Of a stretch of 22,598 nucleotides of DNA, positions 1 through 22,598 are shown piece by piece (the first letter of the stretch is position 1; every line of letters starts with the position of its first letter). The position numbers and the translations under genes are program-made. The stretch lies in the NCBI RefSeq assembly GCF_003334815.1, contig NZ_QOWO01000052.1; one strand, written 5' to 3'. The DNA comes from Escherichia coli. GTDB lineage: Bacteria; Pseudomonadota; Gammaproteobacteria; Enterobacterales; Enterobacteriaceae. The notes beneath the pieces were generated by a model. The model searched no databases. It saw only the letters and a list, made by a program, of their open reading frames with translations, and was not told where the DNA came from.

Positions 1-100
1 ACCTTAAGGAAACAACATGTTGGGTGGAGCGGACAATCCAAATGGTGAATTACCGTCTTATATCACTGGCGCTGACACGAATTACGGGGCGGGTTTCAGT

Positions 101-382
101 TCAGCGCATATCTGCAATCTGATAAACTTCGCTGCTTTCCCTTCTTCCAACAGCAATAACGAGTAAAACGACTTTCTCATCAATGACTTGATATACAAGT
201 CTGTAGCCAGATGCACGAAGTTTGATTTTATAGCGATCAGCATGACCATGTAACCGGGCTGCGGGTACGCGTGGATTTTCCAGCCGTTCTGCCAGCTTCT
301 TTTTGAATTGTTCACGGATGGTGTGGCCGAGTTTCTGCCATTCCTTCAGTGCTCTGCGGTCAAAAGCCAGTTCATAGGTCAT
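101..382 (-). CDS. relE: RelE/ParE-family toxin (mRNA interferase) of a type II toxin-antitoxin pair
   Basis: 93-aa ORF; translation (MTYELAFDRRALKEWQKLG...YKIKLRASGYRLVYQVIDEKVVLLVIAVGRRESSEVY) matches from memory the E. coli RelE/StbE pattern (YKIKLRSSGYRLVYQVIDEKVV); overlaps the upstream antitoxin ORF by 11 bp. Confidence 0.85.
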   Translation of the reverse strand: MTYELAFDRRALKEWQKLGHTIREQFKKKLAERLENPRVPAARLHGHADRYKIKLRASGYRLVYQVIDEKVVLLVIAVGRRESSEVYQIADMR

Positions 383-623
383 CCAGGTTAACCTTCACAA
401 TTTCCGGGTTTTTCATGCGCTCATCAGCAACAGCGTTTAACTCAGCATCTTCAGCGAGTTCCCGATAGTAGGCGTAAAGTTTTGGTGGAACGCAATAGAA
501 CGCCGGTTCGTTTCGGTTCAGGATCGCAACAGCGTCCCCTTCACCTTCAGCTACGGTTCCCATAGGATTTTTTTTCAGGTCAGTAATACTGGCCGCTGTG
601 GTTGTCAGAATTTGATAGCTCAT
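372..623 (-). CDS. RelB/StbD-like antitoxin (Phd/YefM-like N-terminus, RelB-like C-terminal tail)
   Basis: 83-aa ORF immediately upstream of and overlapping the RelE-like gene; C-terminus (ERMKNPEIVKVNLDDL) resembles the RelB C-terminus (ERLRNPKPVRVTLDEL); classic antitoxin-then-toxin order. Confidence 0.8.
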   Translation of the reverse strand: MSYQILTTTAASITDLKKNPMGTVAEGEGDAVAILNRNEPAFYCVPPKLYAYYRELAEDAELNAVADERMKNPEIVKVNLDDL

Positions 624-734
624 AAGTCCTCCGCTTGTCTTATTGGCATAATAGCATCTTTAAAAGTACTCTTAAAAGTGCTTGTGTTGAGAAAAACATC
701 AGAACAGGTGAGGTATGGCTCTTTCCGACATCGC

Positions 735-780
735 CTTAAAACGCTCTGTAACGCGTTCTGAGCGTTTTTTCCCGTTTCGT
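735..780. repeat. ~45-bp imperfect direct repeat, copy 1 (internally palindromic)
   Basis: cttaaaacgctctgtaacgcgttctgagcgttttttcccgtttcg is repeated with a few substitutions at 923-967. Confidence 0.5.
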
Positions 781-922
781 TATAGTCAGCTACAGTTTAA
801 CGGTTTTTAACGCCGCTCAACGCTTTTTAGCGGCCTTGTTGCTGTGATCTGTTGCCATGATCCGGATAGGAGTTCAATCTTGATCAAAATTTCCTCAAGG
901 CAACGACTGTTTTGTAAATACC

Positions 923-967
923 CTCTAAAACGCGCTGTATCGCATTCTGAGCGATTTTTTCGATTTC
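923..967. repeat. ~45-bp imperfect direct repeat, copy 2
   Basis: ctctaaaacgcgctgtatcgcattctgagcgattttttcgatttc; lies between the TA promoter side and the replication origin. Confidence 0.5.
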
Positions 968-1266
968 ACATGGTTTTCCTCATGGTTACATCGAACAAAG
1001 CGTTAGAAAGCGATTCAGGGCTTCTCAGTGAAAGATCCAAAAAGGATCAATCAACGGATCGTATGATCTGAACTCTTCTGGTTTTGAGAAAGGAGACACC
1101 GCTCGCCGCAGCCGAACGACCGAGCGTAGCGAGTTAGTGAGCGAGGAAGCGGAACAGCACAGGGATAACATCAGGCAATTACGCGCAGTGGTTAAAAAGC
1201 GAGCATATTGTTTTTATGTGTGGTTATCTTGGTTCAGAGTGATCTGTCCTCTGGGTTTACGCAAAG

Positions 1267-1275
1267 TTATCCACA
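1267..1275 (+). promoter_or_regulatory. DnaA box (TTATCCACA), origin-proximal
   Basis: Exact consensus 9-mer ttatccaca, inside a duplicated 16-mer gcaaagttatccacag. Confidence 0.75.
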
Positions 1276-1305
1276 GGTAGTGTGAATTTTTTGTTTTGAG
1301 CAAAG

Positions 1306-21370: not shown

Positions 21371-21386
21371 CAAACTTTTGAGTCTG

Positions 21387-21411
21387 GCCTGCCAGATGGC
21401 AGGCTTTTTTT
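21387..21411 (+). terminator. Rho-independent terminator after the SPATE gene
   Basis: gcctgcc-agat-ggcaggc hairpin followed by ttttttt, 17 bp after the stop. Confidence 0.75.
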
Positions 21412-21542
21412 CCCCAGTGTGCAGTACAGCTTTTCCTCAGGGCTGGGAGAATGTCTAGTAGTCATTAGAAAAAGCTGACAACTCGTAACTCCACACACAG
21501 TGCTGGCGGGAAGCAGTCACAAAATTAGAGAGGATAAAAATT

Positions 21543-22193
21543 ATGAAGATCCAACCAGACTCAGTGATCCGCCTGGAGCCAGATGAAAAATTACCCGGCT
21601 ATAGCAGTCTGAAACCCGTACCTGACAAGTATTTCGATGAGTTAAAGGCGCTCATAAATAAACTCAATACTCAATCAGGTAATATTTACCTGAAGTTAAA
21701 GCAAATGTACGCCTTTCTGGAACGATTTAACAAAGAATTTGTAAGTACATTTACCTCCTGTAAAAAAGGGTGTTGTTCGTGCTGTAAGATCGATGTTCAT
21801 TTAACCGTACTTGAAGCGACATATATTGCACAGGCAGCTAAAATCATAGCCAGAGATAATCAACTTACGACCGGACATAATTCAAAATGTCCTTTTTTAT
21901 CTGAGAAAGGTGCGTGTTCAATCTATAATTACCGCCCATTGTTATGCAGGACATACCATGTCCTTACTCCGCCAGAACTGTGCAGTACACAAAGCAATCA
22001 AGTTTTACAGTATGGGGTCCAAAGAGCAAATATGGGAAACCATATCTACAAAACGATAACTGAGTGGGTCTATTTTCAAACGTATCACTGCACTGGTAAG
22101 TTAGAACCCAAAGATATCAGAGACGTCTTCCCTTATCCCCGCGAGGATATCCAAAGATTTCTTCACCATAACCCCCCACGTCCATTTTGTTAA
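21543..22193 (+). CDS. YkgJ/UPF0153-like Cys-rich (putative Fe/Zn-binding) protein
   Basis: 216-aa ORF with SD gagagga; Cys cluster CKKGCCSCCK ... CPFLSEKGACSIYNYRPLLCRTY, typical of the YkgJ-type putative zinc/iron-chelating domain. Confidence 0.6.
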   Translation: MKIQPDSVIRLEPDEKLPGYSSLKPVPDKYFDELKALINKLNTQSGNIYLKLKQMYAFLERFNKEFVSTFTSCKKGCCSCCKIDVHLTVLEATYIAQAAKIIARDNQLTTGHNSKCPFLSEKGACSIYNYRPLLCRTYHVLTPPELCSTQSNQVLQYGVQRANMGNHIYKTITEWVYFQTYHCTGKLEPKDIRDVFPYPREDIQRFLHHNPPRPFC

Positions 22194-22195
22194 AG

Positions 22196-22228
22196 AAAAA
22201 GCCTCAGACATTATGTCAGAGGCTTGTT
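22196..22228. terminator. Putative bidirectional terminator between convergent genes
   Basis: Imperfect hairpin gcctcagac-attat-gtcagaggc with an A-run on the left (a T-run for the minus-strand gene) and ttgtt on the right. Confidence 0.45.
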
Positions 22229-22231
22229 ACA

Positions 22232-22461
22232 TTACGGTTTACCAACAAAGATGGACGCACTTTTGGGGATTAGAAACTCATCGAGAGAACGCCCGGCTTT
22301 CAATGCTTCACCAATCGGTTTTGGCGCACGCCCACGACCAGACCAGTATTTCGTTTCACCATTTTCTTCAAATTGATACTTGGGTGGCGCGTAAGCGCTC
22401 CGTCTGTAACGTCTTGTGATGGTTGTCCTGTCTGGCAACAATCGCGTCCATCTATATTGAT
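22232..22461 (-). pseudogene. H-NS-family C-terminal DNA-binding domain fragment (N-terminal oligomerisation domain absent)
   Basis: Translation ...YAPPKYQFEENGETKYWSGRGRAPKPIGEALKAGRSLDEFLI matches the H-NS C-terminal domain (YVDENGETKTWTGQGRTP..I...GKSLDDFLI); no ATG (the ORF-track start is TTG) and the frame runs upstream into an IS terminal repeat at 22462. Confidence 0.6.
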
Positions 22462-22598
22462 TGAACCGCCCCGGGTTTCCTGGAGAGTGTTTTATCTGTG
22501 AACTCAGGCTGCCAGATCATCGTTTCCGATGGAAGCATAATAAGCTTTTTCTGCTTCTGCCGGAGGAGTATGGCCCAGCCTTTCCAGCAATCGTCGAT
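22462..22598 (-). mobile_element. Terminal part of an IS3-family (IS629-like) insertion sequence, continuing beyond the window
   Basis: Terminal sequence tgaaccgccccgggtttcctggagag resembles the IS629/IS3411-group terminal IR (TGAACCGCCCCGGG...) from memory; minus-strand frame ending at 22504 reads ...RRLLERLGHTPPAEAEKAYYASIGNDDLAA, compatible with a DDE transposase C-terminus. Confidence 0.5.

Follow-up and report, generated by a model that had tools for sequence, protein, structure and literature searches.

The stretch of Escherichia coli DNA considered here is 22,598 nt long (RefSeq assembly GCF_003334815.1, contig NZ_QOWO01000052.1; the whole stretch is termed the window). Judged by homology and gene order, it is about 22.6 kb of an IncX1 plasmid that carries a fimbrial operon and a gene for a serine protease autotransporter (SPATE). 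Positions 78-8519 are about 96% identical to many records typed as IncX1 (MOB-suite/PLSDB), and the IncX gene order is kept: pir, a gene in the bis position, ddp3, par, res, an accessory region and ykgJ/hns. The order agrees with that of the plasmids pSBF22c and pN16S074-2 and of the IncX3 plasmid pNDM5_ESY002; here ddp3 is frameshifted and hns is truncated. An earlier note on this DNA, made by eye, had described a sharp mosaic of base composition and attributed it to at least four independently acquired cargo blocks on one backbone. The mosaic is real. It is probably the ordinary patchwork of an IncX1 plasmid, i.e. an old trait of the backbone, modules that come and go, and cargo in the usual load site. 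The features are as follows (ORF, open reading frame; IS, insertion sequence).

101-623, minus strand: relE/stbE-relB/stbD toxin-antitoxin genes, IncX1 backbone, 46-47% GC (NCBIfam RelE_StbE, E=6.5e-10).
1192-2620, plus strand: AT-rich origin region and rep1, backbone, about 35% GC.
1256-1331: DnaA-box repeats of the origin; 1486-1528 and 1613-1633: 21-nt iterons (repeat analysis).
1781-2620, plus strand: rep1, a pi/Pir-type initiator gene (RepM/RepE-type matches).
2614-3453, plus strand: 840-nt insert with rep2, a second initiator gene (ORF 2641-3483), variably present, 32.5% GC.
3487-3933, plus strand: orf148, a conserved IncX gene 3' of pir in the bis position, a 46.5% GC islet within an AT-rich region.
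4070-4430, plus strand: ddp3 (DNA distortion polypeptide 3), with a 1-nt insertion near 4087-4090 that disrupts it.
4239-6364, minus strand: AT-rich variable module, 34.5% GC, with DUF6685 (4449-5309), YcxB-like (5327-5923) and orf91 (5947-6222) genes.
6365-8545, no strand assigned: partition and resolution block, backbone, 44.2% GC, with orf103, parG (6685-6915), parF/ParA (6971-7618; ParA_partition, E=2.9e-52), repeats and the serine resolvase gene res (7891-8535).
7628-7768: array of an 8-nt TGAGTTTA repeat (repeat analysis).
8570-8833, plus strand: left 264/265-nt element, the start of the cargo region, with GGGG...CCCC termini and terminal inverted repeats of about 32 nt.
8834-11463, plus strand: segment with the Abi gene and the truncated ISEc45 gene.
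9142-10086, plus strand: Abi-family gene, 40.7% GC, annotated as Abi family protein in relatives.
10305-11338 (match; ORF 10384-11337), plus strand: truncated transposase gene of the IS110-family ISEc45, 46% GC.
11522-11785, minus strand: second 265-nt element, on the right and inverted, with 99% complementarity to the left one.
11786-12290, plus strand: frameshifted C-terminal TnpB remnant of the IS200/IS605 family, 505 nt, 52.7% GC.
12291-12709, plus strand: non-coding leader of the fimbrial operon, at 22.4% GC the most extreme segment.
12766-16976, plus strand: chaperone-usher fimbrial operon with an FGL-type chaperone, GC climbing from 35% to 46% along it; papB-like regulator (12766-13077), chaperone (13094-13891), usher (13911-16367) and pilin (16437-16976).
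17258-21370, plus strand: Pic-like SPATE of 1370 amino acids, 49.7% GC.
21543-22390: right-end IncX backbone, with ykgJ (21543-22193, plus strand) and a 3' remnant of an hns/sfx-type gene (22235-22390, minus strand).
22462-22598, no strand assigned: one end of an IS3-family element (IS1203-like), the rest of which lies beyond the window.

Overall GC content is 42.2%, and 500-nt intervals span 0.26 to 0.55. The standard deviation (SD) of GC over non-overlapping 500-nt intervals is 0.062, compared with a mean of 0.022 and a maximum of 0.029 in 500 shuffles. In 22.6-kb stretches of the E. coli K-12 core chromosome (100-150 kb) it is 0.031-0.036, so the window value is about 1.8 times that of K-12 core DNA. 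Recursive Jensen-Shannon segmentation, with a split kept only if it exceeded all 300 permutations, resulted in nine segments and eight significant change points, from 22% to 51% GC.

1-1191: 46.1%
1192-6180: 35.4%
6181-10101: 42.8%
10102-12290: 48.6%
12291-12709: 22.4%
12710-14471: 35.6%
14472-17487: 41.7%
17488-21238: 50.7%
21239-22598: 43.5%

For the main splits G is 31-117, the permutation maxima being 13-22; two weaker ones, at 14471 (G=17.1 vs 15.4) and 10101 (G=18.8 vs 15.8), lie near the permutation maximum. The GC computation, on which the earlier note had let its mosaic depend, thus returned significant block structure. Its gene lists stand in part. AT-rich, as described, are rep1 (36.2%), rep2 (33.0%), the 4.4-6.2 kb module (DUF6685 35.8%, YcxB-like 30.0%) and the chaperone-usher operon (papB-like 34.6%, chaperone 36.1%, usher 40.0%) with its leader. 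The Abi gene does not belong there, being intermediate at 40.7% and grouped by the segmentation with par-res, nor does the pilin gene at 45.9%. A composition close to that typical of E. coli is found only in the 505-nt TnpB remnant and the SPATE gene, the codon usage of which is host-like (GC at third codon positions, GC3, 0.51; codon-usage distance z = -0.3 vs 35 K-12 genes). Other genes given as typical are GC-richer, i.e. relE (46.1%), relB (47.2%), parF (46.0%) and the resolvase gene (47.8%), but relBE, parF and res have GC3 of 0.40-0.48 and z = -2.5 to -4.6 against the K-12 genes, and parG is intermediate at 40.3%. GC3 and codon-usage distance, the latter inflated for short genes, were more informative than the codon adaptation index relative to K-12 ribosomal-protein genes, which discriminated poorly (all genes 0.22-0.50). 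Dinucleotide signatures (delta*) were tried as a sign of different donors and rejected: differences between halves of one block (60-114) overlap those between blocks (43-128). No Rfam family attained its gathering score anywhere in the window.

How did the mosaic originate? The AT-rich rep1/ori region and the GC-richer relBE, orf148, parFG and res all belong to the syntenic IncX1 backbone. The relBE region is 99.7% identical to that of IncX1 pSBF22c, the rep region is matched by 869 plasmid records and the 6365-8545 block by 1832, and IncX1 alignments stop at 8519-8545. In the IncX3 plasmid pNDM5_ESY002, pir (33.4%) and ddp3 (33.9%) are AT-rich beside the GC-richer orf148 homologue (47.1%), parA (49.0%) and res (52.0%). 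The two plasmids are well diverged, with protein identities of 39% for Pir, 28% for the ParA-type protein, 58% for the orf148 product and 78% for the resolvase. As the same contrast recurs in so diverged an IncX3 backbone, it should predate the divergence of the IncX subgroups and not represent cargo. Backbone GC heterogeneity is, on this comparison of sequences, intrinsic and old. The right end, with ykgJ and the hns remnant, is likewise IncX backbone and not cargo, since ykgJ adjoins hns in IncX3 as well (85% amino-acid identity of YkgJ). Accessory genes in IncX3 also lie between res and ykgJ-hns, and positions 8546-21420 therefore correspond to the canonical IncX load site.

Within this backbone, two AT-rich modules are variably present. 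The rep2 gene lies between pir and orf148, and its product is 28% identical to that of rep1; it might serve as a second replicon, for escape from incompatibility or as a regulator. In pN16S074-2 the segment is missing, position 2613 being followed directly by 3454 in the alignment. Coverage of at least 80% of 1781-3933 is reached in only 181 of the 869 matching records, i.e. about 80% of the matching IncX1-like records are without rep2. Of 255 plasmid records that match the second module, 4239-6364, only 24 have it in full. Another allele takes its place in pN16S074-2 and in pISHS7_3, the plasmid most similar to the window, and that allele also has 35% GC.

In the load region, the fimbrial operon and the SPATE gene are about 10 GC points apart and differ in codon usage, but they are found together. 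The operon is present in 12 PLSDB plasmids. In pISHS7_3, the fimbrial and SPATE genes are adjacent and collinear across the junction save for an IS3-family insertion. Salmonella Newport plasmid pSNE1 (NZ_CP025255.1) is collinear over 12154-21419, with the two again adjacent; its counterpart of 11786-22388 lies, together with ykgJ, hns, hha and parG of the IncX type, between direct repeats. IncF plasmids of pig E. coli match 12464-17431, a stretch that includes the pilin gene and ends 174 nt into the SPATE gene; RefSeq annotates this SPATE fragment as an ESPR signal-peptide protein. Fimbria and SPATE are thus linked in at least three replicon contexts and, as read from these alignments, are one unit on the time scale of the plasmid. 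Their deeper origins are different, because SPATE relatives at 80-85% identity (among them those of mouse E. coli plasmids and Citrobacter rodentium pCROD1, and pic) match the ORF only, 17253-21374, and are not among the 12 plasmids that carry the fimbrial operon.

These patterns (GC statistics, synteny, presence and absence) suggest a patchwork of three layers. The first would be an intrinsic backbone, with the iteron origin, pir-type rep and ddp3 at 33-39% GC, and relBE, orf148, parF and res at 45-48%. The second would consist of the two AT-rich modules gained or lost inside the backbone, rep2 (2614-3453) and DUF6685-YcxB-orf91 (4239-6364). The third would be the load region, a product of insertion-element and recombination events that occupies the interval from res to ykgJ-hns and holds the inverted 265-nt pair around Abi and truncated ISEc45, the TnpB remnant and the fimbria-SPATE island. 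The AT-rich FGL chaperone-usher operon and the host-like Pic-family SPATE gene would have reached this backbone, and other replicons, as a linked unit. We infer the order of these events from the patterns, and likewise the functional upkeep of AT-richness in the origin, leader and fimbrial genes, where melting of the origin and H-NS-type silencing and counter-silencing might preserve it.

Could function account for most of the mosaic, whatever the ancestry of the parts? By this explanation DNA is AT-rich where melting, bending or H-NS/Sfx-type silencing is needed, namely in the origin, in promoters and the leader, in the fimbrial genes and in the signal-peptide region. In its favour, the most extreme segment, at 22% GC, is the non-coding leader, and the origin with its iterons and DnaA boxes is AT-rich. 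Gradients run within single genes: GC rises from 36% to 42% along the usher gene, and from 43% in the first 500 nt of the SPATE gene to about 50% further on. The allele that replaces the DUF6685 module elsewhere is no less AT-rich, and AT-rich plasmid DNA is a target of the H-NS homologue that IncX plasmids themselves encode (bioRxiv 10.64898/2026.02.23.707533). What it leaves unexplained is the GC3 of 0.25-0.33 in rep2, the YcxB-like gene and the chaperone gene versus 0.51 in SPATE, and the distinct distributions of the modules in other plasmids. As the main cause of the mosaic, function is a possible explanation, with the balance tilted against it.

The explanation of the earlier note, that each compositional block is separately acquired cargo (at least four blocks on one backbone) and that GC steps are insertion scars, predicts that steps and junctions coincide. 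Five of the eight GC boundaries (6180, 10101, 12290, 17487 and 21238) do lie within 200 nt of a junction defined by comparison with other plasmids (binomial P about 0.02). The sharpest step in the window, at 12290, from 52.7% to 22.4%, abuts the end of an IS remnant. The other three boundaries (1191, 12709 and 14471) fall inside conserved units, with no comparative junction found near 1191, and two steps lie within genes, 14471 in the usher gene and 17487 in SPATE. The note had placed boundaries at IS scars and at the inverted repeats; none of the eight is at either arm of the 265-nt inverted repeat, and the real junctions at 4238 (left edge of the variable module), at 8545-8569 (backbone/cargo) and at 11786 show no GC step. 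It had also looked to related plasmids for blocks that are variably present. The module at 4239-6364, the Abi segment and the SPATE ORF are variable, but rep1/ori, relBE and par-res are always present. Variable presence with ends at a composition change is seen for 4239-6364 (right edge only), the SPATE ORF and the TnpB/leader junction; it fails for the three constant regions and for the steps at 1191, 12709 and 14471. With a contrast that recurs in the IncX3 backbone, and with fimbria and SPATE linked despite their difference in GC, at least four independent acquisitions seem unlikely, although the mosaic and the variable modules remain from that proposal. That the blocks are mere gene-to-gene noise, for which one could cite only the two weaker splits near the permutation maximum, is practically refuted by the G values of the main splits and by an SD about 1.8 times that of K-12 core DNA.

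Several points weigh against the three-layer patchwork, which is nevertheless preferred. The junction list for the coincidence test was assembled post hoc, and the junction at 12290 was defined partly from the sequence itself. Counts of presence and absence are coverage bands from PLSDB megablast and not a curated IncX1 phylogeny. The IncX3 comparison is with one plasmid, and a conserved GC pattern could also reflect shared selection and not shared ancestry. Beyond GC, nothing supports different donors for the blocks. Finally, only 22.6 kb of the source plasmid is in view.

What does the mosaic signify? GC identifies some but not all of the mobile units, and blocks do not correspond one-to-one to acquisition events. 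The mosaic is what one would expect of an IncX plasmid whose cargo is virulence genes, and is already known in kind. The case is of use mainly as a caution. Partitioned by GC steps alone, the plasmid would seem to have cargo where there is conserved IncX backbone, its fimbria and SPATE would count as separate blocks although they move together, and the true border of backbone and cargo would go unnoticed. Of practical use is the map of an IncX1 plasmid with a Pic-like protease and an Afa/AAF-like fimbria; E. coli of cats and pigs and a Salmonella Newport isolate from a human have the same island.

The closest known system is the IncX1 plasmid pISHS7_3 (NZ_CP092255.1, from cat E. coli), which matches 83% of the window at 97.8% identity and is typed as non-mobilizable. 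It shares the order of the backbone (relBE, ori, two rep genes, orf148, ddp3, parFG, res, load region, ykgJ-hns), as well as the Abi segment, the fimbrial operon and SPATE. It differs in the allele at 4239-6364, in having a single 265-nt element, an intact IS200/IS605 element in place of 11124-12127, and an IS3-family insertion between the pilin and SPATE genes, and in its divergent pilin allele (73-90%) and intact hns. R6K is described as having a comparable architecture, with backbone operons rich in AT, a transposon island rich in GC and a plasmid-borne H-NS homologue (bioRxiv 10.64898/2026.02.23.707533). Relative to IncX3 and R6K, the window carries genes for virulence and defence in place of resistance genes, has one more rep paralogue and retains only a truncated hns. 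The type IV secretion region (pilX/tax) falls outside the 22.6-kb window.

One feature worth noting is the unnamed 265-nt pair around a phage-defence gene. The element is non-coding, 264-265 nt long, reads GGGGTTGTA...CCCC and has terminal inverted repeats of about 32 nt at 84%. It is present, unannotated, in 182 PLSDB plasmid records, nearly all from Escherichia, and its ends are precise in six contexts. Between the two copies, the ISEc45 gene matches the IS110 transposase model (E=5.8e-63) at positions 81-338 only. There is a likeness to TIME-COMP structures, as two GGGG-terminated non-coding elements of about 260 nt, in inverted orientation, bracket a 2.7-kb segment on an IncX1 plasmid; the cargo here is an Abi gene and not a resistance gene. 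Judged by its GGGG termini, the element is a short non-coding one with terminal inverted repeats of the Tn3-family type, as in TIMEs. The flanking direct repeats of 5 bp or 6 bp that mark TIME and TIME-COMP units do not accompany it: 5-bp direct repeats were found neither at the pair (AATAA vs TATCT) nor at five further copies, and a pattern of duplications swapped by inversion was not found at the elements either. As to named TIMEs and miniature inverted repeat transposable elements, the termini differ from those of TIME244, IS101, IMU, MITEKpn1 and MITESen1, the entries compared from a part of Table S2 of PMC13367494. An autonomous partner was sought through a match to the inverted repeats alone, which led only to a dimeric colicin S4 plasmid. 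Positions 8568-11463 are 99.9% identical in three IncI-gamma/K1 plasmids, the homology beginning at the outer end of the element. Because element, Abi gene and truncated ISEc45 are this similar in IncX1 and IncI-gamma/K1, the two copies might represent a Tn3-type miniature element that has no name as yet, and together a TIME-COMP-like unit by which a phage-defence gene passes from one plasmid family to another. The proposal is doubtful; if true, it would widen the cargo of TIME-COMP units past resistance genes.

Adjacent to the right copy, the TnpB remnant was recognized by tblastn with the pISHS7_3 TnpB, with matches at 12027-12104 and 12140-12223 in different frames and at 46-55% identity. 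Opposite 11124-12290, pISHS7_3 (12843-14755) has an intact IS200/IS605 element with tnpA and tnpB. The TnpB remnant of the window is older than, and different from, this intact TnpB. From these alignments, the spot at 11124-12290 appears to have been struck repeatedly by mobile elements.

The fimbrial operon is of the FGL chaperone-usher type, with an FGL-type chaperone, an usher and a single major subunit, the pilin relationship being weak. Chaperone and usher have NCBIfam matches. The best solved relatives of the chaperone are Caf1M (E=1e-50), DraB (1e-46) and SafB (1e-38), with FimC/PapD at 1e-21 to 1e-14; the pilin is only marginally similar to AfaE-III (E=0.0097). Compared with Afa/Dr/AAF/Saf/Caf1-type systems, a gene for an invasin or tip subunit was not seen in the window. 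When the 22% GC leader was scanned for promoters and terminators, promoter-like sites proved no commoner than in shuffles. Identity to pISHS7_3 is 96-99% for chaperone and usher and 99.7-100% for SPATE, but 73-90% in the pilin region (16328-17227) and 85% in the leader (12428-12727), versus 98-99% flanking the leader. The pilin gene looks like a site of allelic turnover or replacement, or of diversifying selection on the major subunit. It is also GC-richer (46%) than the remaining operon.

The SPATE gene product has the attributes of its class as far as these can be read from the translation, i.e. an extended signal peptide, an S6 passenger with the GDSGS motif (here GDSGSP) and a C-terminal beta-barrel (autotransporter barrel, E=4.6e-74), and relatives are annotated as S6 family peptidase/ESPR. 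It matches the Pic/SepA/EatA/Hbp passengers and the EspP barrel over its full length, and among passenger domains that of Pic is the closest (1881 bits), followed by SepA, EatA and Hbp. Its DNA is 83% identical to pic and 80-85% identical to SPATE genes of plasmids from rodent E. coli and C. rodentium.

Two of the other carriers of the island offer further detail. In pSNE1 (NZ_CP025255.1, 6900-22300), an IncX-derived segment of about 14.5 kb comprises the TnpB remnant, fimbria, SPATE, ykgJ, hns, hha and parG. The direct repeats around it are at least 300 nt long and 97% identical, and overlap two site-specific integrase genes. Homology to the window begins precisely where the right 265-nt element has its outer end (11786), although pSNE1 is without that element. 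In the IncF pig plasmids (NZ_CP062831.1, 2388-10963), an IncX-like res (90.8% identity) lies upstream; an IS3-family element, the fimbrial operon and the 174-nt SPATE fragment are also present. This arrangement suggests that these plasmids captured an IncX1-derived fragment and later lost SPATE.

Of the remaining backbone features, ddp3 carries its insertion relative to both pSBF22c and pN16S074-2, which leads to stop codons after 10 codons; it is either a pseudogene or a sequencing error. The hns remnant corresponds to residues 97-148 only (tblastn with the pISHS7_3 H-NS), so that the plasmid's own silencer may be inactive despite the AT-rich cargo. An unassigned stretch of 71 nt separates it from the end of the IS3-family element at 22462. 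The right end, 21421-22598, has 3983 matching records, mostly 95-100% matches annotated as IS3-family/IS1203 transposase elements. Arrays of the 8-nt TGAGTTTA type are present at 7628-7768 and 6936-6964, upstream of parF and downstream of parG, and consist of GAGT boxes with 4-nt AT-rich spacers. They resemble the ACTC-box parH centromere/operator of ParFG systems, and are putative sites of this kind.

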